From: Anaerolineae bacterium
GTDB lineage: Bacteria; Chloroflexota; Anaerolineae; Anaerolineales; UBA4823
Assembly (NCBI GenBank): GCA_003130835.1
Contig: QEXX01000088.1
Coordinates: 16,715 to 80,714 of the forward strand
DNA: 64,000 nucleotides
Direction: 5' to 3'
Each line of letters begins with the position of its first letter. The first letter of the stretch is position 1. A program made the position numbers and the translations under genes. The notes under the pieces are model-generated. The model was not told the origin of the DNA, made no database searches, and was given only the letters and a program-made list of their open reading frames with translations. Below are positions 9,666 through 53,773 of this stretch, piece after piece.

Positions 9666-9739
9666 TGGGCGGAAAGGGACTCGAACCCCCGACCTCCTCT
9701 GTGTAAGAGAGGCGCTCTAACCAACTGAGCTATCCGCCC
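9666..9739 (-). tRNA. tRNA-Val(TAC)
   Basis: Reverse complement GGGCGGATAGCTCAGTTGGTTAGAGCGCCTCTCTTACACAGAGGAGGTCGGGGGTTCGAGTCCCTTTCCGCCCA folds as a cloverleaf; anticodon TAC; CCA not encoded. Confidence 0.97.
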
Positions 9740-15540: not shown

Positions 15541-15626
15541 GGGGCGGTGGCGGAACTGGCAGACGCAGGGGACTTAAAATCCTCCGGAGGTGACACTCCT
15601 TGTGGGTTCGACTCCCACCCGCCCCA
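15541..15626 (+). tRNA. tRNA-Leu(TAA)
   Basis: GGGGCGG acceptor stem, GGGGA-CTTAAAA-TCCTC anticodon arm, long variable arm, GTTCGACTC T-loop. Confidence 0.97.
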
Positions 15627-42731: not shown

Positions 42732-44489
42732 TTAGCGATCTAATTCACCTAAAACGATATCAATCGAACCCAATATGGCAACCGCATCGGCAACTTTGTT
42801 GCCTTTCGCCATGGTTTCCAATGCCGTGATGTTGACAAAAGATGGTGCACGAACATGATATCGCCACGGATTAGGTTTTCCATTGGAAACCACATAATAC
42901 CCCAACTCTCCTTTCGGAGCTTCTACCCGACCATAGGCTTCGCCCGGAGGAACTCGCACCTGGTACTGCGGTTTGCCGGCCTGAATTGGACCTTCTGGGA
43001 GATCACGAATGGCTTGTTGGAGAATGCGGATGCTTTGGCGGATTTCATCCATGCGCACGAGATAACGGTCGTACACATCGCCATGGTAGCGCACTGCTAC
43101 GTCGAACTCAAACCGATCGTAAATGCTATAGGGATCCGCGCGACGGATATCATACGGCACACCAGAAGCTCTTAGCAAAGGACCGCTTGCAGAATAGGCA
43201 ATTGCTTGCTCAGGGGTCAAGACACCCACCCCCTCACAGCGAGCGCGGATAATTTCATTATTTGTCAGGTACAAATCGAGCTCATCAATCCGCCGTGGCA
43301 ACCTCTCGTACACAAGGTCACGCATTTTCTCATAGACGCCTTCTGGCAAATCCCGTGCAACCCCTCCAAAACGGAAGTAATTACACATCATCCGTGAACC
43401 AGCTACCGCCTCGAAGATGTCCAAGATTAATTCTCGCTCCTCAATGGCGTATAACATCGGGGTAAAGTAAGCCCCCAAATCGTTGAGCAGTGATCCAATG
43501 GCGAAGAGGTGATTGCTGATCCGAGTGAATTCCGCCATAATCACCCGCAAGTATTCAGCTCTCTCTGGGGGTTTGATGCCCATCAATTTTTCGACCGCTA
43601 TAGCATAACCGAAATTGTTGCTCATTGAGGACAGATAGTCCAAGCGGTCTGTAAAGGGCATGTTCATTAGGTAGGTATTCCGCTCGCCAATCTTTTCATG
43701 GTTGCGATGTAGATACCCCATGACCGGCTTCAACGCTCGAATCGTCTCGCCCTCCAGCAAAACCACCATACGGAATACCCCATGCGTCGAGGGATGTTGA
43801 GGGCCCAAATTGACAATCAGAGTATCCGTCTTGAGCGAAGAATCCGAAAGGCTAGATTGGATTTTGGTCAAACTAGCATAGAGAGAGGAATCGTTATCGG
43901 GAATCCATTTATCTGGGTCAAAATCGGCGGGATAATCGACGTTTTTATGAAATGGATTTTTATCCTCGATCCGGTAGACATGTCCATCTGGCCAGCGGCT
44001 CTTAAAGGGTTTTGCGTCCTCCTCATAATAAGGTTCACGCCAATCCTTGCGTAACGGGTGGCCTGCAAATCCTTCCCACATCAAGATGCGCCGCAAGTCC
44101 GGATGGCCTTCGTAGCGAATGCCCAATAAATCCCACGCTTCTCTCTCTTGGAACTCTGCGCCCGGATAGAGCGAGACCAGAGACGGAACAACTGCTTGAT
44201 CACGGGGCGTTTGCACCTTTAGAACCAGCGCAGGTCCGCCAATCGTGCGGTAAAAGTGATAGACCGATTCCATCAAGCCATCTGGAAGATAATCTACGCC
44301 TGTCACCGAAGAGAGGTAGTCATATCCCATCTCATCACGCACGGTCTTGGCAACATCGAGTAACGCCTCTGCCTTGACGATATATCCCTCATACCCCTTG
44401 CGTTCATCTCGCTTTACGGATTCAGGAAATCTTTCGGTTAAGTCCATCTCTGTCAACACTACTTGTTCGGTCATTTTCCCTTTCTCCAT
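42732..44489 (-). CDS. nuoCD: NADH-quinone oxidoreductase fused subunit C/D
   Basis: NuoC EREAWDLLGI.Y.GHPDLRRI..GHPLRKD; NuoD NLGPQHPSTHGV, GYLHR..EK, EAPKGELG, DIVLGELDR; no NiFe CxxC motifs. Confidence 0.93.
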   Translation of the reverse strand: MEKGKMTEQVVLTEMDLTERFPESVKRDERKGYEGYIVKAEALLDVAKTVRDEMGYDYLSSVTGVDYLPDGLMESVYHFYRTIGGPALVLKVQTPRDQAVVPSLVSLYPGAEFQEREAWDLLGIRYEGHPDLRRILMWEGFAGHPLRKDWREPYYEEDAKPFKSRWPDGHVYRIEDKNPFHKNVDYPADFDPDKWIPDNDSSLYASLTKIQSSLSDSSLKTDTLIVNLGPQHPSTHGVFRMVVLLEGETIRALKPVMGYLHRNHEKIGERNTYLMNMPFTDRLDYLSSMSNNFGYAIAVEKLMGIKPPERAEYLRVIMAEFTRISNHLFAIGSLLNDLGAYFTPMLYAIEERELILDIFEAVAGSRMMCNYFRFGGVARDLPEGVYEKMRDLVYERLPRRIDELDLYLTNNEIIRARCEGVGVLTPEQAIAYSASGPLLRASGVPYDIRRADPYSIYDRFEFDVAVRYHGDVYDRYLVRMDEIRQSIRILQQAIRDLPEGPIQAGKPQYQVRVPPGEAYGRVEAPKGELGYYVVSNGKPNPWRYHVRAPSFVNITALETMAKGNKVADAVAILGSIDIVLGELDR

Positions 44490-44490
44490 C

Positions 44491-45159
44491 TTATGCAGGA
44501 TTTACCCCTTCTTGCGCCGTAGCTTCGGCTTGACCTTCCATCGATTTTTTCTGAGAGTACTCGCGGATTAATTCATACTCCCGCGGGTCCATAATATCCG
44601 GGCCTAAAACAGGCACCGGAATCACTTCTGAGACCCCTTTCTTATACCAGCGCGCCTCCCGTAACGTTTGATTGTCGATCTTCTTTTGAAGTGTAATCAA
44701 TCCATGCAGCAGAGCCTGCGGTGTCGGAGGACAACCTGGAATGTACACATCAACAGGAATATAGTTGTCGATTCCAGAGACAACATTGTAGCCTTCCTTG
44801 AAAGGCCCTCCTCCAGAAGCACAGGCGCCCATGGCAACCACATATTTGGGTTCGGGCATCTGGTTATATAACCGGACGATCTGCGGAACCATCTTCTTGG
44901 TCACTGTGCCGGATACCAGCAGTAGATCTGCTTGGCGTGGACTCGGCCGCATCACTTCCATCCCGAAACGAGCAAAATCAAAGCGGCTGGCAGCCGTGCA
45001 GATCATTTCAATCGCGCAGCAAGCTAAACCAAACATCATCGGCCAGATAGAAGACCGCCGACTCCAGTTGTAGATGCGGTCAATAGTTGTCACAGCAACT
45101 TGATTTTTAATCTCCGGGGGTATTTCGTAACCGGGCTTATTGAGTTCAGTGTCTGTCAT
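44491..45159 (-). CDS. nuoB: NADH-quinone oxidoreductase subunit B
   Basis: [35 protein letters not shown]. Confidence 0.96.
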
Positions 45160-45371
45160 GGATTGACCTCCTCATACCAAGTATTGAAGATTTGGAGCAA
45201 AATATCATCGTTGACAATCGAAGGATCATCGTCAAACTCTGCCAATGCTAAAATCCACTCGCACAAAGTTCCCAAAGAAAGACTCTCAAAATTTACAGAA
45301 GGATGGCTTCGTTTCAAACATTGCACGATCCCAAAGGTATCATCCCAGTTCAATCTTTCTTCTACAGCCAT
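45156..45371 (-). CDS. iscX: Fe-S cluster assembly protein IscX (YfhJ)
   Basis: LNWDD..I...L...HP, WI..L.EFDDDP..N..IL..I...W.EE closely matches the IscX pattern. True start is probably ATG 45371 (or 45380), not the 123-aa track ORF. Confidence 0.85.
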
Positions 45372-45378
45372 TAGCGCC

Positions 45379-45407
45379 ATTATAATCGGGTCATAGGATT
45401 TGGTCAA
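45379..45407 (-). promoter_or_regulatory. Sigma70 promoter of iscX-nuo operon (probably leaderless)
   Basis: TTGACC-17-TATAAT, then 7 nt to ATG 45371; no SD. Confidence 0.75.
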
Positions 45408-45430
45408 GCTAGAATATAGCAAATATATAT

Positions 45431-45459
45431 TTGCGTTAATGACCTGGTTGAGATATAAT
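45431..45459 (+). promoter_or_regulatory. Sigma70 promoter of SufR-like regulator (probably leaderless)
   Basis: TTGCGT-17-TATAAT, then 7 nt to ATG 45467; no SD. Confidence 0.72.
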
Positions 45460-45466
45460 ACGAACG

Positions 45467-46090
45467 ATGGCGCCAACACGCACGAAAATTCTTGCTTTCT
45501 TAGAAAAACGAGGGTCTGCTTCCGCAATAGAATTGAGCCATGCCCTGCAATTGACCCCTGCCAACATCCGTCATCACCTACGGGTCTTGCAAAAAGAAGG
45601 GGTGGTCATTGCCATCCGTGTCGATCGTACCCACGAACGCGGTCGCCCTGCCTATTTATTTGCCCTTCGTGAACAACAAAAAGCTCACAACCTTGACCGT
45701 TTGTGTGGTGCATTCCTGCAACACTTGCGCGCCGCAGCCTCGCCGCATGAAAAAGACTCCGTGCTTCGTTCCATTGCCCAACAAATGGCGGCGATGAAAC
45801 CAACTTCTCCCGCGCTGAACCTCACCCAAAGATTAATGGCTACCATGAAAACCCTAAACGAGATGTCTTACAAAGCAAGTTGGGAAGCACACCGCGAGTC
45901 TCCAACCATTAAGTTTGCTCATTGCCCTTATGCATCCATCATAGATTCTTTTCCAGAACTCTGTCAAATCGATCAATATCTCCTAGAAGCTCTGATGCAA
46001 TGCTCAATCGAAACTGTATCCACACAAGAGAGCACCCCGACAGGGGAGTTTATCTGTCGTTTTCGCTTACGGCAGCCCAAACCATCGTAA
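45467..46090 (+). CDS. SufR-like winged-HTH transcriptional regulator
   Basis: HTH (ELSHALQLTPANIRHHLRVL..EG), RGRP, and C-terminal HCPY-x9-LC...C metal/Fe-S ligand pattern. Confidence 0.78.
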   Translation: MAPTRTKILAFLEKRGSASAIELSHALQLTPANIRHHLRVLQKEGVVIAIRVDRTHERGRPAYLFALREQQKAHNLDRLCGAFLQHLRAAASPHEKDSVLRSIAQQMAAMKPTSPALNLTQRLMATMKTLNEMSYKASWEAHRESPTIKFAHCPYASIIDSFPELCQIDQYLLEALMQCSIETVSTQESTPTGEFICRFRLRQPKPS

Positions 46091-46243: not shown

Positions 46244-46690
46244 ATGGGATTTACCGCCATGAAACAAACGCAAAAACGGAAGCGAATGCCATTCCAGGCC
46301 GATCTTGGGCAGATAAAAAGGTTATTGTATTTCCCCATCACCCTGCTGATGCTAGCCGCCTGTGCCTCCTCTGCCAATTTACCGAATCAGGTGATCGAAG
46401 CTTATTATCAAGCCCTAACCCTGAAAGACTTAAACACCATGATCTCTCTAGCTTGCCCAGAATGGGAGGAGCAAGCCCGCAATGAATACAACTCCTTTGG
46501 GGCAGTAACCACGCAATTGCAAGACCTGAAATGTGAAACCGCCTCGCAGGATCAATCCAAAGCATTAGTCACTTGTCGCGGCAAGATTATTGCCAATTAT
46601 GAGAATGAAGTATTAGAAATCGACTTATCCAAACTTAAATTTCAAGTTGTTCAACGAGGCGGGAATTGGTTGTTTTGCGGTTACCCCTAA
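46244..46690 (+). CDS. Lipoprotein of unknown function (NTF2-like)
   Basis: Lipobox LAAC, four further Cys, C-terminal W.FCGY; real start may lie downstream. Confidence 0.65.
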   Translation: MGFTAMKQTQKRKRMPFQADLGQIKRLLYFPITLLMLAACASSANLPNQVIEAYYQALTLKDLNTMISLACPEWEEQARNEYNSFGAVTTQLQDLKCETASQDQSKALVTCRGKIIANYENEVLEIDLSKLKFQVVQRGGNWLFCGYP

Positions 46691-46719
46691 TCCATGTAGC
46701 CTCCTATTAGAGAGCATCC

Positions 46720-46839
46720 ATGTTATCCAAACTCTTCTCAAAAGAAAATCTTTATGCTATCCTGCTTTGTCTGATGTTAATCGCTTTAATTGTGTTAACA
46801 GCCGATACCGCCCCCGTCTGGATTTACCAGGGGTTTTAG
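46720..46839 (+). CDS. DltX-like small membrane protein (39 aa, absent from ORF track)
   Basis: Translates as MLSKLFSKENLYAILLCLMLIALIVLTADTAPVWIYQGF; one TM helix; C-terminal WIYQGF; TAG directly abuts the MBOAT ATG. Confidence 0.82.
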   Translation: MLSKLFSKENLYAILLCLMLIALIVLTADTAPVWIYQGF

Positions 46840-48240
46840 ATGTCCATCCAACAAGTCCTATTATTAGTCTTCCTGGCTTTCCTGTGTGGAAGAGTCAAGA
46901 ACCACCGCATCCGTAATTTCCTCCTCATCGTCTCAAGTTTCGTAATTTTCTATCGCTTTCAAACTGCAACCCCCATCTTCTTTCTCGATTTTTGGTTACC
47001 CACATTCGCTATCCTCATGGCTCTTACCGTGTGGGCAGCTACGCAAACCAGCCTTAAGAAGGCACTTAAGGACAATCTTCAAACTCTAGTCATTGCGCTG
47101 CTCGTTATTTCTCTAATCTCCGCCAATCGCTATTTGACCCTTTGCTGCATCACTGCCACACGTCCTCCTCATCTCTGGGTTGTCCTTTCATTTATTGTCA
47201 TTTTTTTTATCCTATTGGCAGTATTTGTCCTGGCAATTCCCCATGGGACTCGGCTTGGATTGTTGATCATAGCCTTCATCGCTATCTTCGTCGTCCTAAA
47301 GACACCTGAGTTTTCTCTCCTGCTCAGCAAAGTGCTCCGTTGGATCAATCAACAAGACCCTCGCTTCAGTTCACCAAATGATTTGGTTTGGCTGGGAATC
47401 TCCTATATTCTTTTTCGTTTGCTTCACCTTCTGTTCGATAGTCGCGCGGGCAGACTACCTCCTGCAAATTTGGCTGAGACCCTCTGCTATATCTTTTTCT
47501 TTCCCGCCTTGGTTGCCGGGCCGATTGCTCGCTTTCCCCAATTTCAGGCGGAGTTAAAGAAATCCCCACAACTCGAAGAGGTCGTTGAGGGGATGCAACG
47601 AGTCTTCATCGGTTTGTTTCGGAAATTTGTGCTTGCGGATAGCTTAGCTTTGCTCTCTCTTTCACCCCAAAACGCCCCCCTGATTCAATCCTCTATCTAT
47701 TTGTGGACAGCTTTACTTGCTTACTCGCTGAGGATTTATTTTGACTTTAGCGGCTACACCGACATTGCTATCGGCAGTGCACGCCTGATGGGCATCCGTC
47801 TTCCCGAGAACTTCAACGCGCCTTACTTAAAAACTAATCTCATCCAATTTTGGAGTAGTTGGCATATCACCCTAGCCGATTGGTTTCGTTCCTATGTATT
47901 CAATCCACTTGCTCGCAAACTACGCCTCAATTCAGCTATGCCATCCTGGCTAACCATTCTCATCCCTCAGCTTTCCACGATGCTGCTTATTGGCTTGTGG
48001 CATGGCATTTCTCCAAATTTTTTCCTCTGGGGGGCGTGGCATGGCGTCGGATTATTTCTTAACAACCGTTGGACTAGTCTGAGAAAATCTGCTCCCAGCT
48101 CTCGCTTCCAAGCTTTACAAAGTTTCTTCGGCTGGGGATTGACATTTGCTTTTGTCACGCTCGGATGGGTCTGGTTTTTGATGCCCACTTTTGACGGCGC
48201 TATAGAAACCTTTCGCAAACTCTTAGGGTTTGGGTTATAA
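46840..48240 (+). CDS. MBOAT O-acyltransferase (DltB/AlgI family)
   Basis: LGISYILFR, FFPALVAGPI, YFDFSGYTDIA, ENFNAPY, FWSSWHITL, GLWHG (catalytic His). Confidence 0.94.
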   Translation: MSIQQVLLLVFLAFLCGRVKNHRIRNFLLIVSSFVIFYRFQTATPIFFLDFWLPTFAILMALTVWAATQTSLKKALKDNLQTLVIALLVISLISANRYLTLCCITATRPPHLWVVLSFIVIFFILLAVFVLAIPHGTRLGLLIIAFIAIFVVLKTPEFSLLLSKVLRWINQQDPRFSSPNDLVWLGISYILFRLLHLLFDSRAGRLPPANLAETLCYIFFFPALVAGPIARFPQFQAELKKSPQLEEVVEGMQRVFIGLFRKFVLADSLALLSLSPQNAPLIQSSIYLWTALLAYSLRIYFDFSGYTDIAIGSARLMGIRLPENFNAPYLKTNLIQFWSSWHITLADWFRSYVFNPLARKLRLNSAMPSWLTILIPQLSTMLLIGLWHGISPNFFLWGAWHGVGLFLNNRWTSLRKSAPSSRFQALQSFFGWGLTFAFVTLGWVWFLMPTFDGAIETFRKLLGFGL

Positions 48241-48245
48241 AGACT

Positions 48246-49376
48246 ATGCAGACCATCAGTTCCACTCAAACGAAATTCTGGTTGCGCGTTGCGTTCAAGG
48301 GGTTTACCCTGTTCGTGATCGCCAACCTTGTTTTTCCTTTTTCTAACATTGATTATGGTAAATTCTCTTTATATAATCTCATTTTTATGGGGCGCCTGCG
48401 CCTGCCCTATAGCGAACAACCCTCTGAGTCGTATAATGTCACCATCACCAACCTAGATGCCATGTTTGCTTCTCATATTTTGAGCGGCAAGCCCAAATTT
48501 TCTACAGAATATCGTGTCCTGTTGATCGGCGACTCAGCAACCTGGGGTTATCTGCTTCTGCCCGACCAAACCCTGGCAGCCTATCTCAATGAGATGCAAT
48601 TACACACGCCAGACGGCAAACAAGTTGTTTTCTACAATCTTGGTTATCCGGTCATGTCGCTCTTAAAAGATGTCCTCTTACTTAAGAGAGGCCTCGAATA
48701 TCAACCGGATTTAGTGCTCTGGTTGGTCACGTTAGAATCCTTCCCCATGCAGAAACAATTTGCCTCGCCCTTGCTTGAGCAAAATCAGAGCGAGGTTATG
48801 CGTATGCTTAATGACCTAGAATTGAACAAGGCCATGCCTACCCCTCCGCTAGTTCAACAACCGCTTTGGAAACGCTCGTTAATCGGACAGCGCAAAGCCC
48901 TCGCCGATTGGTTCCGCTATCAACTGTATGGCTTTCTCTGGACTGCCACACACATTGATCACGCCATACCCGACGAAATCCCCGAAAAGCAGGTAGACCT
49001 AAGCGCTGATACCGAATTTTACAGCCAATCCCCACCCAATTTTGACCCGCATTTCCTTGCTTTTGCAGTGCTCGAAGCAGCCTTTCACTTAGCTACACCA
49101 ACCCCCATCATCTTGATTAACGAGCCGATGTTTATAAGCAACGGTCTAAACAGTCAAATTCGGTATAATTTTTATTACCCTCGTTGGGCATATGATGAAT
49201 ATCGCAACTTATTGGCAAATTTTTGTCTAGAGAGAAGCTTGACCTGCTGGGATATATGGAATTTGATCCCACCGGATGAGTTCACCAACACGGCAATCCA
49301 CATGACGCCACAAGGCACTGCTCAAACTGCACAATGGATAGCCACTGCACTGGACAAGTGGATGCAAAAACGCTAA
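48246..49376 (+). CDS. Membrane-anchored SGNH-like protein (DltD/AlgJ-like)
   Basis: N-terminal TM; block I LIGDSATWG; YNLG; C-terminal FTNTAIHMTPQG (DxxH-equivalent). Confidence 0.7.
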   Translation: MQTISSTQTKFWLRVAFKGFTLFVIANLVFPFSNIDYGKFSLYNLIFMGRLRLPYSEQPSESYNVTITNLDAMFASHILSGKPKFSTEYRVLLIGDSATWGYLLLPDQTLAAYLNEMQLHTPDGKQVVFYNLGYPVMSLLKDVLLLKRGLEYQPDLVLWLVTLESFPMQKQFASPLLEQNQSEVMRMLNDLELNKAMPTPPLVQQPLWKRSLIGQRKALADWFRYQLYGFLWTATHIDHAIPDEIPEKQVDLSADTEFYSQSPPNFDPHFLAFAVLEAAFHLATPTPIILINEPMFISNGLNSQIRYNFYYPRWAYDEYRNLLANFCLERSLTCWDIWNLIPPDEFTNTAIHMTPQGTAQTAQWIATALDKWMQKR

Positions 49377-49398
49377 ACGAAATTGAGATTTTCAACCC

Positions 49399-50445
49399 AT
49401 GATTCATCGTAACCTTGTCTTCCTTTTCCTCGTTAGTATTTGGTTCATCGGCGCTTGTCAACCTTTACAAACGCCGTCCGTTCAAAATCCAAATCCTTCT
49501 GACGGTGAAGGTTTCCTCCCTTCTCCAACAAAGAGGGTCAATCAATCACTCACAGGAACACCATCATCGCTCAATCAAGCGCAACCATCCCCAGAACCCC
49601 AAGGTCAACAGACCATTCCTCCCCTCCCAACCCTAACCCCCACCCTCTTGTCTATACCGAGTGACTCACCAACGCCACAACCCTCTCCAACGCCATCTCC
49701 AGACCCGCAAGATTGGATGGAATGGCCGGTAGTTCCCCTTCCGTCAGAGCGTGTAAAGGAAATTTATCAGACTGGCTTAGCGTTAGGCAACCATCCGAAC
49801 GCCTTTTCCAAAGTGGGGGATTGTGGCAGCACACCCTCCTGGTTTTTAGGGGATTTTGATCGCGGCCCTCGTTTCTATAATTTGGGAGAATACACCTACC
49901 TACAGACAGTCATCGACTATTATCAGGGTTCGTTTGGACGAACCAGCCTAGCCGCTTTGGCCGGCTATAACACTTCCTCGGTATTGACTCCTTTATGGTC
50001 AAACAAAGAATTTTGCGCCAACGATGAATCGCCTTTAGCCTGTGAATATCGGCTTCACCGTCCGGCGATTGCCTTGATTACCTTAGGGGCGAACGATGTC
50101 TATCATCTTGAAAGCTTTGAGCCCCAACTACGCAAAATCATTGAGTATTCCATCGAGCAAGGAGTCATCCCGGTCTTAGCGACCAAACCGGACAATGTTG
50201 AAAAAGATCACCGTATCAATCAAACAACCGCTCGCTTGGCAGCGGAATATCAAATTCCGCTTTGGAATTATTGGAAAGCCGTCCAACCCCTCCCCAATCA
50301 TGGATTACAGGAGGATGGCGTCCACATCACGTTTGCTAGCAACGACTTCAGCAACCCTTTGAATATGCAAGCTGGTTGGCCAGTTCGAAATCTGACCGCT
50401 TTACAAGTTCTATACGCCCTGTACACATATCTCAATACCCAATAA
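49399..50445 (+). CDS. SGNH/GDSL-fold lipoprotein
   Basis: Lipobox IGAC, Pro/Thr/Ser linker, KVGDC (block I), LGAND (block III), DGVH (block V). Confidence 0.75.
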   Translation: MIHRNLVFLFLVSIWFIGACQPLQTPSVQNPNPSDGEGFLPSPTKRVNQSLTGTPSSLNQAQPSPEPQGQQTIPPLPTLTPTLLSIPSDSPTPQPSPTPSPDPQDWMEWPVVPLPSERVKEIYQTGLALGNHPNAFSKVGDCGSTPSWFLGDFDRGPRFYNLGEYTYLQTVIDYYQGSFGRTSLAALAGYNTSSVLTPLWSNKEFCANDESPLACEYRLHRPAIALITLGANDVYHLESFEPQLRKIIEYSIEQGVIPVLATKPDNVEKDHRINQTTARLAAEYQIPLWNYWKAVQPLPNHGLQEDGVHITFASNDFSNPLNMQAGWPVRNLTALQVLYALYTYLNTQ

Positions 50446-50455
50446 GGCAGACCCT

Positions 50456-50707
50456 ATGGAAGAACTTCTGAATGACCTATCCAAATTTATTGCGGAAACC
50501 ATCCTGCAAAATCCATCTCGGAAGATCAAACCGACAGAAGCGTTGATTTCAAGTGGCTTATTGGACTCTTTCCATTTAGTTGACCTTGCCATCTATATCG
50601 AAGAGCGCTTTGGCGTAAAAATCGAAGACACCGAATTAAACCGCCAAACCTTTGATAATCTGCAAGAGTTGAGCAAGATCGTTTTTGACAGAATGCAAGG
50701 CAAATGA
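50456..50707 (+). CDS. Acyl carrier protein, DltC-like
   Basis: 83 aa, acidic; GLLDSF phosphopantetheine site; IEERFGVKI. Confidence 0.9.
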   Translation: MEELLNDLSKFIAETILQNPSRKIKPTEALISSGLLDSFHLVDLAIYIEERFGVKIEDTELNRQTFDNLQELSKIVFDRMQGK

Positions 50708-52404
50708 CAACGCTAGCGGAAATCATGCGGCGTACCGCAGTTGAAGAGCCCCAAAAGACCGCCATCATTTTCCAAGCGCGCGGCAAACCCGATCAGGTCA
50801 TCACTTATGAAATGTTGTATCGGAATGCCCTTCGCTACGGCAAGGTCCTTCGAGAGCAAGGAATTCAGCCTGACGAAGTCGTCATCATTGTCCTTCAGCA
50901 TAGCGTTGATTTGATCTACGCCTTCTTCGGGGCGATATTCGCCGGCGCCGTTCCTTCGATCATGCCCTTTTTAACCGAAAAACTCTCTCCAGAACATTAT
51001 CGCAAGTCCTTACGTTCCCTTTTTGAAGTGATTCAGCCTGCGGCAGTGATCACTTATGCCGAATTCGAAGCGGAGATTCAACAGGCCGCCCAAAACAGCT
51101 CAGTTCGCAAAATTCTAATTACCCATCATTTCTCCGCCATCGACTCGGATATAAACGCATTGCCGGGCTTTAGACGCGACCCGACAACCATTGTCCTTTT
51201 ACAGCATTCTTCCGGAACTACGGGGCTGCAAAAAGGTGTAGCGCTCTCCCATCAAGCTGTGCTGAACCAATTGAACGCTTATCAAAAAGCCATCCATCTT
51301 AACACTTCAGATGTCATCATCAGTTGGTTACCGCTCTACCATGATATGGGGCTAATTGCTGGATTTCTGATGCCCATTCTGCTCAAAGTTCCATTAGTGC
51401 TAATGTCTCCCTTTGATTGGGTTCGTTCCCCCGTTTTGCTCATGCGGGCTATCCATCAATATCAGGGTACGCTAACCTGGTTGCCCAATTTTGCCTATAA
51501 CTTTTGCGCGCAAAAAATCCGCCCCTCCGATATGGAAGGCGTTAACCTATCCTCTTTGCGGGCGGTCATCAATTGCTCCGAACCAATGATGCTATCCAGC
51601 CATGAAAGGTTCTTGCAACGTTTTAAACCCTATGGACTCAAGGCAAGCGCCTTGGCAACCTGCTATGCTATGGCTGAGAACGTTTTTGCCGTCTCACAGG
51701 ATGGGATTGATAAGCCGGTCACGCTGGATTGGATCGACCGAAGAGGGCTATTGGTAGAGAAAGTTGCTCGCCCCGCCTCTCAAGGAATCGATTCAATGTG
51801 TATGGTTTCGGCTGGAAAACCGCTTGAAAACACCCAAGTTCAGATTGTGGATGAGAAAGGAAATCCCTTACCGGAGCGGGTGATCGGTGAAATTGCCCTG
51901 AAAAGTGATTGTATGTTGAGCGAGTACTACAAGCGTCCAGACTTGACGCAGGCAGCTTTTTTAGATGGTTGGTATCTGACCGGCGACCTTGGTTATCTCG
52001 CCAACGGAGAGGTTTATATTACTGGCCGAAAAAAGGACTTAATCATCGTAGGCGGAAAAAACATTTATCCCCAGGATATCGAACGGATTGCCGGAGAAGT
52101 TGAAGGCGTCTATCCAGGGCGTGTGGTTGCATTTGGTGTCCTTAATGAAGACTTGGGTACAGAGGAAGTGGTTGTCGTTGCTGAAACAGAGGAAGTTGAC
52201 CCTCAGCGAAAGCTCGAGATCTCTGAGCAAATCTGCTTCCAAGTCAACCGCTCGAGCGACATTGTCCTCAGAAAGGCTGTGCTTGTCGAGCGGGGCTGGC
52301 TCCTAAAAACCAGCAGCGGTAAAATCGCCCGCTCGGCAAATCGCGAAAAATATTTGCGGAAACTTCAAGAAACAGGACGAGGGGAGGACAGCACAGAGCG
52401 ATAG
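50704..52404 (+). CDS. Fatty acyl-AMP ligase-type adenylating enzyme
   Basis: LQHSSGTTGLQKGV, SWLPLYHDMGLI, PNFAY, CYAMAE, TGDLG, GRKKDLII.GG.N.YPQDIE, KTSSGKIAR. Confidence 0.87.
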   Translation: MTTLAEIMRRTAVEEPQKTAIIFQARGKPDQVITYEMLYRNALRYGKVLREQGIQPDEVVIIVLQHSVDLIYAFFGAIFAGAVPSIMPFLTEKLSPEHYRKSLRSLFEVIQPAAVITYAEFEAEIQQAAQNSSVRKILITHHFSAIDSDINALPGFRRDPTTIVLLQHSSGTTGLQKGVALSHQAVLNQLNAYQKAIHLNTSDVIISWLPLYHDMGLIAGFLMPILLKVPLVLMSPFDWVRSPVLLMRAIHQYQGTLTWLPNFAYNFCAQKIRPSDMEGVNLSSLRAVINCSEPMMLSSHERFLQRFKPYGLKASALATCYAMAENVFAVSQDGIDKPVTLDWIDRRGLLVEKVARPASQGIDSMCMVSAGKPLENTQVQIVDEKGNPLPERVIGEIALKSDCMLSEYYKRPDLTQAAFLDGWYLTGDLGYLANGEVYITGRKKDLIIVGGKNIYPQDIERIAGEVEGVYPGRVVAFGVLNEDLGTEEVVVVAETEEVDPQRKLEISEQICFQVNRSSDIVLRKAVLVERGWLLKTSSGKIARSANREKYLRKLQETGRGEDSTER

Positions 52405-53621
52405 AGGTCAATCATCCTATTGGCGATTAGCTCCCAACCAAACGCCTTCGCAAATTCAGCCGCTTGTTTGCCCATTTTTGCTCGTAGTTCAGAATCAGAG
52501 AGCAGGCTGGCAATACACTCCGCCAGCAATTGAGGCTCATCAACGGGGACGGTACAGCCGGTAATGCCATCCTGAACCAAGTAGGCTAATCCGCCAACAT
52601 TGGATGCTACCACTGGGGTGCCACAAGCCATGGCTTCCAAAGCAACCATTCCAAACGATTCATAATGCGATGGAACGACCACAATCTCGGCTGCAGAATA
52701 ATAATAAGGGAGGGTATCCTGACTTTTCTTTCCCAAAAAGGCGACCAAATCCTCCAATCCATATTCGCTTCTCATGGTGCTGAGGCGCTCCTGTTCAGAG
52801 CCTCGAATTTCAGGCTCTCCATCTTCATTACCGCCAATTACTGCCAGACAGAATGGAGTCCGCTCCCACAAACCATTTTGGCGCATGATCGCAATCGCTT
52901 TAAATAAAACATCCAAACCTTTTAGCGGTTCGATGCGACCTACAAAAAGCATCATCCGATCACAAGGACGAATGCCAATATATTCTTTGGCTTCATCCAT
53001 CGGAATCGGATAAAAGCGGCTTAAGTCCACCCCTGGCGGAATCACTTGAATTTTGGATACATCAGCCTGATAGAGCCACTGTAATTGGGCTAATTCTGCC
53101 GGAGTAGCCGCAACAACCCGATCCACCTCTTTCAAAACCCGATTTTCTCCTATAATGCGATATTCTCCCTCAGCCTCAGTGGCAGAGCGTGCAACACGCT
53201 GTTTCATCTTTCCAAGCGTGTGAAACATGTGTACCACTGGTACCTGCCATACCTTCTTTAACTCTAACGCAGCAAGTCCTGACATCCAATAATGGCTATG
53301 GAGCAGGTCGTACTTAAATCCCTTCTGATCCGCAAAATCGACAATCCCCTCTACAAATTGGGGTAGATATCGACTTAATTCTGCTTTCGGCAAAGGGGTC
53401 TCCGGACCAGCCGGAATGTGAACAACCCGATTGCCAAAACCCAACTCATGCAGGACATGTGGCACATGTTCATCTTGCGAACGGGTGAAAACATCTACCT
53501 GAACCCCCAACGCACCAAGCTGGTGGCTCAGATCACGCACATAGACATTCATTCCACCCGTGTCCTTTCCGCCTAAGGTTGCCAAAGGACAAGTATGATA
53601 AGACAACATGGCTATCCGCAT
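52365..53621 (-). CDS. GT4 glycosyltransferase, MshA-like
   Basis: HTCPL..GGKDTGGMNVYV, HSHYWMSG, FVGRIEPLKG, PSHYESFGMVALEAMACG. Confidence 0.85.
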   Translation of the reverse strand: MRIAMLSYHTCPLATLGGKDTGGMNVYVRDLSHQLGALGVQVDVFTRSQDEHVPHVLHELGFGNRVVHIPAGPETPLPKAELSRYLPQFVEGIVDFADQKGFKYDLLHSHYWMSGLAALELKKVWQVPVVHMFHTLGKMKQRVARSATEAEGEYRIIGENRVLKEVDRVVAATPAELAQLQWLYQADVSKIQVIPPGVDLSRFYPIPMDEAKEYIGIRPCDRMMLFVGRIEPLKGLDVLFKAIAIMRQNGLWERTPFCLAVIGGNEDGEPEIRGSEQERLSTMRSEYGLEDLVAFLGKKSQDTLPYYYSAAEIVVVPSHYESFGMVALEAMACGTPVVASNVGGLAYLVQDGITGCTVPVDEPQLLAECIASLLSDSELRAKMGKQAAEFAKAFGWELIANRMIDLYRSVLSSPRPVS

Positions 53622-53700: not shown

Positions 53701-53773
53701 GCCACCGTAGCTCAGCAGGCAGAGCAAGCGTTTCGTAAACGTTAGGTCAAGGGTTCGAATCCCTTCGGTGGCT
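53701..53773 (+). tRNA. tRNA-Thr(CGT)
   Basis: GCCACCG acceptor stem; AGCGT-TTCGTAA-ACGTT anticodon arm; GGTTCGAATCC T arm; followed by a T-run. Confidence 0.96.

Follow-up and report, generated by a model that had tools for sequence, protein, structure and literature searches.

A stretch of 64,000 nucleotides from an Anaerolineae bacterium (assembly GCA_003130835.1, 94 % complete; contig QEXX01000088.1, positions 16,715 to 80,714), referred to here as the window, contains a compact cluster of seven genes that probably encodes, to judge from the sequences, a carrier-protein-dependent relay in which an acyl group other than D-alanine would be exported by way of a membrane-bound O-acyltransferase (MBOAT), a tyrosine residue and SGNH proteins. 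The MBOAT-tyrosine-SGNH logic of bacterial polymer acylation is itself already known from work of 2023-2025, since in both the Dlt and the PatA/PatB systems an MBOAT delivers the acyl group to an acyl-tyrosine shuttle and this in turn to an SGNH transferase, as outlined in parts of two published accounts (PMC12148441; PMC11035591). What appears to be new is a variant of the Dlt/PatA-PatB type of relay that is fed by a ligase of the fatty acyl-AMP ligase (FAAL) type, and because of this activating enzyme the group that is attached to the cell surface is probably not D-alanine. The members of the module are as follows.

46244-46690 (+): NTF2-like lipoprotein, here called up148; accessory seventh member, directly upstream of X
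46720-46839 (+): X, DltX-like single-pass microprotein of 39 residues; C-terminal WIYQGF, proposed acyl-acceptor Tyr36
46840-48240 (+): MBOAT, DltB-type acyltransferase without a fused shuttle motif, 466 residues
48246-49376 (+): SGNH1, membrane-anchored SGNH protein of 376 residues; proposed DltD/PatB role
49399-50445 (+): SGNH2, secreted SGNH lipoprotein of 348 residues, its linker rich in Pro, Thr and Ser; proposed to act as the terminal transferase or as an editing esterase
50456-50707 (+): stand-alone carrier protein of 83 residues; GLLDSF, phosphopantetheine site Ser38
50704-52404 (+): FAAL-type adenylating ligase of 566 residues; proposed loader of the carrier protein

The six genes from X to the ligase were described in the initial annotation as tightly packed, and all six open reading frames (ORFs) are present on the forward strand, with gaps in the ORF list of 0, 5, 22 and 10 bp and a 4 bp overlap between the last pair. 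The stop codon of X abuts the MBOAT ATG, which is preceded by AGGGG. As an account of the whole gene set, however, that description fell short by one, for it left out the seventh conserved member at 46244-46690. The comparison that reveals this was made over 44 loci, consisting of the window's own, three named contigs of metagenome-assembled genomes (Anaerolineales, Anaerolineae) and 40 from genomes of the same class, which were picked mainly for room on the contig from 55 non-own MBOAT places found at E≤1e-75 (left out were G166, G288, G319, G225, G392, G315, G242, G373, G357, G092, G245 and G169, together with second MBOAT copies in G351 and G009). The up148 gene lies directly upstream of X at 22 of the 44 loci; SGNH1 is present at 34, SGNH2 at 24 (in one to four copies), and the carrier and the ligase at 22 each, the carrier always beside or near the ligase. 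When the ORFs of at least 70 residues from these loci were clustered all-against-all, no other gene family recurred in more than five of them. On these counts the module consists of seven genes and therefore starts at 46244. The gene arrangement is far beyond chance, and related genomes carry the same genes together.

By sequence, the ligase is of the FAAL type and is not DltA, as had been proposed. It matches the AMP-binding family PF00501 with 196.6 bits, and the top NCBIfam subfamily models are NF005850 (372.7 bits, cut-off 572) and the FAAL model NF006624 (364.5 bits, cut-off 600), compared with 130 bits for the amino acid adenylation domain model TIGR01733. It does not cluster with DltA, for which the model TIGR01734 gives 58.5 bits against a cut-off of 559.85, and this model has no match above its cut-off anywhere in the 94 % complete genome. 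The best matches in the PDB are the FAALs 3kxw (1.8e-66) and 3pbk (1.1e-65), both aligned end to end. Ligase residues ~333-375, which we take to be the site of the FAAL-specific insertion, align without gaps to 3kxw and 3pbk, in a comparison with these FAALs only. The carrier protein matches the PP-binding family PF00550 (26.1 bits, cut-off 20.8), with D37, S38 and F39 unchanged in all aligned sequences. Among solved structures it is closest to type II carrier proteins (6cxt, 1.4e-12), and DltC (4bpg) is a weaker match at 1.3e-5.

The microprotein X belongs to a set of ORFs of 33-43 codons that encode a basic N-terminus, a single hydrophobic helix and a tail of the form (S/T)P-x-WIYQGF. An ORF ending in [FW]IYQ[GAS]F and a stop codon is found at 40 of the 44 loci, and among 38 aligned sequences P32, I35, Y36, Q37 and F39 are invariant (the tyrosine in 38 of 38). 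Over the last eight codons the pairwise differences at codon positions one, two and three are 0.054, 0.071 and 0.473, and this excess at third positions indicates that X is a translated gene under purifying selection. The initial designation of X as a DltX-like micro-ORF is compatible with several of its traits, namely its size, the one transmembrane helix, its place before the MBOAT gene and the terminal WIYQGF with its invariant tyrosine, in a tail that conforms to [F/W]xYxxF at the extreme C-terminus. The acyl-shuttle motif is given as FXYXXF in part of one published account (PMC12148441) and as FLYFGF in part of another (PMC11035591); the X hexapeptide has a tryptophan in place of the first phenylalanine, and its tyrosine, glycine and final phenylalanine are identical. 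A C-terminal hexapeptide with an invariant tyrosine, as in the MBOAT-SGNH envelope acyltransferases, is supplied here in trans, by X.

X matched no NCBIfam or Pfam family. A profile of the X family finds at least 3999 clusters in a collection of 5.8 billion proteins. Among the matches listed, every cluster with a name bears the name 'hypothetical', Pfam domains are absent, and where an organism is given, in a few cases, it is from Anaerolineae or Anaerolineales. Searched against 1.84 billion representatives, the same profile matches 199 at 50 % identity, of which the best 150 are all short, with the match C-terminal in all except one over-long ORF, and include neither a fused MBOAT tail nor a recognizable DltX-like protein. 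The profile also matched 29 of 401 sampled genomes of the phylum, all 29 in the class to which the window belongs and with one copy each.

The acyltransferase is an evident MBOAT (PF03062, 70.3 bits against a cut-off of 27 in the Pfam scan) and the only one in this genome at E≤0.001. The suggestion that it is of the DltB type agrees with both its sequence and its predicted fold. It scores 215 bits with the DltB model TIGR04091 and is not a DltB equivalog, because the cut-off of that model is 375; its sequence matches in the PDB are two DltB sequences only (E 7e-42). An AlphaFold2 model, with a mean predicted local distance difference test (pLDDT) score of 92.3, has DltB as its top structural match (6bug_C, Z 29.8, 379 residues aligned, root-mean-square deviation 3.5, 24 % identity; 8jem, Z 29.7), followed by PORCN (Z 24.9), MBOAT7, LPCAT3 and HHAT at Z 22-25, so that DltB stands about 5 Z units above the eukaryotic MBOATs. 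Residues H388, H342 and W397, counted through the PDB-search alignment, align with DltB H336, H289 and Y345, which are named as key residues in part of a published account (PMC11035591), and the three are invariant in 24 orthologues. A terminal FxYxxF is found in none of 36 orthologues, in keeping with the lack of a fused shuttle motif. When plasmids were searched with the MBOAT as query, one Anaerolineae orthologue was found, the other matches being fused-motif MBOATs of other phyla, including those of Deinococcus and Bacillus plasmids that end in FLYYQF and FLYFNF; there was no true dlt operon among these matches with which DltX could be compared.

We note that Leptolinea sp. HRD-7, a cultured member of the Anaerolineaceae, carries up148, X (hrd7_34310) and MBOAT genes (AP024711.1; locus L113, 8377-10356), all annotated as hypothetical, on a 212 kb replicon that is filed as a plasmid. 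SGNH1, the carrier and the ligase are not present in the 19 kb stretch around this MBOAT gene.

The initial annotation treated the donor and relay genes as parts of one system, and the survey of related genomes links them both by locus and by genome. The carrier and the ligase are both within ~9 kb of the MBOAT gene at 19 of the 44 loci. Six genomes without a FAAL gene beside the MBOAT gene were searched further, and five of these have an orthologous FAAL (55-60 % identity) and a carrier elsewhere. The parts may also be distributed in other ways: genome G257 has X, carrier and ligase as a trio on another contig, apart from the MBOAT gene (L074, 1501-3547), G707 has the same three genes consecutively, again away from the MBOAT gene (C6:11227-13263), G322 has SGNH1, SGNH2, carrier and ligase 34 kb from X and MBOAT, and G387 has two MBOAT-SGNH1 pairs in tandem, one X lying between the pairs and one carrier-ligase pair after them (L043, 9494-14512). 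Across 401 genomes of the class, 51 have both MBOAT and FAAL, three have MBOAT alone, three have FAAL alone (making 54 with a FAAL orthologue) and 344 have neither, using thresholds that were set after the lists had been viewed (E≤1e-75 for MBOAT, together with a split match in G119; E≤1e-100 and at least 45 % identity for FAAL). We attach no probability to this table because the genomes are related. Among the discordant genomes, the FAAL of G268 is present in two overlapping pieces, X and MBOAT of G395 are present and cut by a contig end, and G367 carries a fused-shuttle variant of the system.

In this variant, found in G367 (L104, 2129-6654) and G365 (L105, 116-4512), the carrier and FAAL genes adjoin an MBOAT gene whose product, of 476 or 503 residues, has at its C-terminus a transmembrane helix and then FVYLGF or FIYFRF as the last residues. 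The neighbouring gene encodes a protein of 369 (L104) or 343 (L105) residues without a Pfam match; the L104 protein is weakly similar to the SGNH1 profile (hhalign E 0.012, probability 3.7 %), and it aligns with its L105 counterpart over a short HLN..GAR motif only. In a quick FAAL tree, 22 FAALs of the split system form one clade (SH-aLRT 93) to which the L104 FAAL is sister (99), and the L105 FAAL has no firm placement. The variant independently ties a FAAL-carrier pair to an MBOAT and puts X on a par with the fused shuttle. Split and fused forms of the shuttle are thus seen together within a single class. The G367 cluster lies among glycan genes (two GT2 glycosyltransferases, a sulfotransferase, a polysaccharide deacetylase and a PMT_2 protein), a setting that points to a glycan as the acceptor.

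The two SGNH proteins have weak matches to GDSL_2 (18 bits for SGNH1 and 27 bits for SGNH2, cut-off 32.9), although this family is matched at E≤1 by all 22 of 22 SGNH1 family members. An N-terminal helix spans residues 3-32 of SGNH1, and from it we infer a topology with the active site outside the membrane; the invariant residues of SGNH1 are G95, D96 and S97 (GDS), N292, E293 and P294 (NEP), D336 and H352. Its profile matched no PDB chain at E≤10. The AlphaFold2 model (pLDDT 84.5) has an SGNH core that matches TesA (1ivn, Z 17.2) and PatB (7tjb, Z 13.7). Two SGNH1 relatives, P0121 and P0138, carry a precomputed Pfam label, PF27429.1, that was not seen in our Pfam scans of SGNH1, and a Pfam family for SGNH1 may already exist in a newer release.

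SGNH2 has a lipobox-like signal, the blocks GD[S/C], GxND and DxxH and two invariant cysteines, and its best profile match in the PDB is TesA (2.8e-6). The normal SGNH nucleophile is serine, and a thiol nucleophile in this fold is unusual; the nucleophile column of SGNH2 contains serine in 16 and cysteine in 12 of 28 sequences, the copy in the window having Cys142 within VGDCGS. Two of the 28 SGNH2 paralogues have a LysM domain and four have SH3_3, both of which are wall-binding modules. The accessory lipoprotein up148 matched no Pfam family. Its lipobox, LAAC, contains Cys40, which together with four more cysteines is invariant in the alignment, and the ESM Atlas puts the protein among NTF2-like clusters of Chloroflexota.

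Contigs at least 99 % identical to the window occur in four RNA-library runs, all from one study of a microbial mat metatranscriptome and derived from at most two samples. Together they cover parts of every gene of the module, and they bridge up148, X and MBOAT (46551-47004), SGNH1 and SGNH2 (49148-49707), SGNH2 and the carrier (49893-50535), and the carrier and the ligase (50592-50798).

The genes that flank the module are less widely shared. An ArsR/SufR-like gene at 45467-46090 and a convergent gene for an MshA-like GT4 glycosyltransferase at 52365-53621 (−) are syntenic in the closest relative (L002) only. The glycosyltransferase is closest to the mycothiol enzyme MshA (TIGR03449, 381.7 bits, cut-off 462.5), and the 3′ ends of its gene and the ligase gene overlap by 40 bases. 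Farther upstream, at 42732-45527 (−), are ORFs that by eye, from their translations, resemble complex I subunits (a fused NuoC/D-like protein of 585 residues, a NuoB-like protein of 222 residues and a small ORF). The Rfam matches in the window are three tRNAs only, at 9666-9739 (−), 15541-15626 (+) and 53701-53773 (+).

With gene content, family and fold assignments, the conservation of residues and motifs and the co-conservation of the genes established, a path for the acyl group can be suggested. In the cytoplasm the FAAL-type ligase would adenylate a carboxylic acid and load it onto Ser38 of the carrier; a fatty acid is the leading candidate, with about an even chance of being correct. In the membrane the DltB-type MBOAT (His388 and His342) would move the acyl group across and onto Tyr36 of X, whose extracytoplasmic WIYQGF tail would correspond to the tail of DltX or to the 'acyl shuttle' that is fused to the C-terminus in MBOATs of the PatA/AlgI type. 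Outside, membrane-anchored SGNH1 (Ser97 and His352) would receive the group from Tyr36 and pass it, either directly or via the secreted SGNH lipoproteins, to an acceptor for which a wall-associated glycan is the foremost candidate, with less than an even chance. The NTF2-like lipoprotein would be an accessory part of the module.

Several observations weigh against this reading, in which each transfer, the nature of the acyl group and the acceptor are proposals. The RNA-library contigs give weak support to expression and co-transcription, since carry-over of DNA is possible and contigs are no proof of a single transcript, and scans for promoters and terminators gave 11 and 14 sites, no better than the 10.8 and 8.9 in shuffled sequences. 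The likeness to Dlt does not extend to family membership, judged by the models, for X, SGNH1 and the carrier: nothing in the genome matches Pfam DltX (PF12459) at E≤1, and the carrier scores below the cut-offs of the DltC models NF003464 (29.5 bits, cut-off 68) and TIGR01688 (25.2 bits, cut-off 52.35). SGNH1 is not a member of the DltD family, because the Pfam DltD model (PF04914) is likewise without a match at E≤0.01 and DltD stands low in the Foldseek list, the only list in which it appears (3bma at rank 21 and 7dxm at rank 34). The VIA-align comparison puts SGNH1 as near to other SGNH hydrolases as to DltD, or nearer. From its sequence SGNH1 can fill the part of DltD, albeit from outside that family. 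The PDB relatives of the ligase at scores similar to those of the FAALs include ligases deposited as McyG and as 'amino acid adenylation domain' proteins, which act on non-fatty acids, and the acyl group cannot be read from the ligase sequence. Neither carrier nor ligase is within ~9 kb of the MBOAT gene at 19 of the 44 loci, and genome G360 (97 % complete) keeps X, MBOAT, SGNH1 and two copies of SGNH2; searches of this genome revealed neither a carrier nor an orthologous FAAL, and its cluster has no other donor gene as a neighbour.

These last two observations are what might be expected if X, MBOAT and SGNH formed an acyl-CoA-dependent O-acylation system resembling PatA/PatB, with acetyl for example as the group transferred, and the carrier and the ligase were unrelated neighbours that serve the synthesis of a lipid or natural product, FAAL-carrier pairs being common starters of lipopeptide or polyketide lines. 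We regard this as quite improbable. The 51 genomes with both MBOAT and FAAL greatly outnumber the three plus three discordant ones among the 401, at least three of these six being artefacts or the fused variant, and X, carrier and ligase form trios apart from the MBOAT gene. Moreover, the MBOAT is closest to DltB, which uses a carrier protein, polyketide synthase (PKS) or nonribosomal peptide synthetase (NRPS) genes do not recur in the loci, and the fused form is a second architecture in which a carrier-FAAL pair is set against an MBOAT. Ordinary aminoacylation, with D-alanine or another amino acid activated by a FAAL-like enzyme that has replaced DltA, is the least probable of the alternatives that we have considered. 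The GLLDSF region of the carrier has been likened to DltC, DltC is among the weaker PDB matches of the carrier, and the remainder of the relay is Dlt-like; against this, the ligase scores 365-373 bits with the FAAL and long-chain models as opposed to 130 with the amino acid adenylation domain model and 58.5 with DltA, and it aligns over its whole length with two solved FAALs. The initial annotation also remarked that the lineage is not known for teichoic acids; in the 94 % complete genome neither DltA nor DltD was found and, of teichoic acid genes, only a marginal TagF-like match, the latter likewise speaking against ordinary aminoacylation.

A further alternative retains the whole relay and changes its destination, the acceptor being a membrane lipid, a glycolipid or a lipoprotein, in the outer leaflet, and not a wall polymer. 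This seems unlikely, if less so than the two alternatives above. By profile or fold, both SGNH proteins have TesA, a lysophospholipase and thioesterase, as their closest relative of solved structure, SGNH1, SGNH2 and up148 are all membrane-tethered, and no genes for polymer synthesis are conserved beside the main, split type of module. TesA is, however, a minimal form of the SGNH fold that tends to head lists of this kind, the LysM and SH3_3 modules on six of the 28 SGNH2 paralogues point to the wall, and the G367 fused variant sits within a cluster of glycan genes.

The preferred reading, a carrier-dependent relay for an acyl group other than D-alanine, can be carried further, to the proposal that Anaerolineae export long-chain fatty acids via the tyrosine of a microprotein and esterify them to glycans of the cell wall. 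We consider this full version to be doubtful, and its interest lies in what would follow from it. These Chloroflexota have by the usual account no outer membrane, and if the proposal were true their wall would bear a hydrophobic layer of covalently bound lipid, comparable in function with the mycolylated wall of the Corynebacteriales; the synthesis of the latter also starts with a FAAL, and its extracytoplasmic enzymes are entirely different. Even in its less specific form, the reading would define a second and large family in which a carrier protein and a DltX-like microprotein occur together, with a FAAL in the place of DltA. The relay would then reach a new class of acyl donors, and a phylum about whose envelope chemistry little is known. 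The decoration of the Anaerolineae surface thereby becomes a testable question with a defined set of genes. Judged by titles and abstracts, we found no published description of a FAAL-fed MBOAT system in the literature on MBOAT or DltB with FAAL, carrier or adenylation; the PatA/PatB paper was the only relevant one found on dlt-like systems, and the literature on the Anaerolineae envelope and teichoic acids held nothing informative by title or abstract.

The system most like the module is DltXABCD of the Bacillota. Both have an adenylating ligase and a small carrier protein that it loads (here, by proposal), an MBOAT of the DltB type with no shuttle motif fused to it, a separate single-pass microprotein of ~40-50 residues at the head of the operon that ends in an aromatic-x-Tyr-x-x-Phe hexapeptide, and a membrane-anchored SGNH partner. 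The module differs in that its ligase is of the FAAL type and not DltA, that X, SGNH1 and the carrier lie outside the DltX, DltD and DltC models, that the order of the genes is different, with the ligase and the carrier last, and that there are extra parts, namely one to four SGNH lipoproteins and the NTF2-like lipoprotein; its host, moreover, is a member of the Chloroflexota with no clear teichoic acid genes. The other MBOAT/SGNH pathways use acyl-CoA and have neither a carrier protein nor a DltX-like microprotein, according to part of one account (PMC12148441). The PatA/PatB, AlgI/J/F/X and WssH types of O-acetylation share with the module the pairing of an MBOAT with an SGNH protein and the FxYxxF tyrosine shuttle; AlgJ, AlgX and AlgF resemble it further, with at least two SGNH proteins and, beside them, a small accessory protein outside the cytoplasm, and the fused-shuttle MBOAT of G365 and G367 has exactly the PatA/PatB and AlgI type of architecture. 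In the module, by contrast, the MBOAT is linked with a carrier protein and a FAAL, and the main form has a gene of its own for the shuttle. Finally, the FAAL-carrier pairs exemplified by FadD32-Pks13, EcFAAL, LpFAAL and the lipopeptide starters have a ligase of the same family with a dedicated, adjacent carrier, although in the module no PKS, NRPS or condensing enzyme lies downstream, and the acyl-carrier appears instead to feed a membrane MBOAT.

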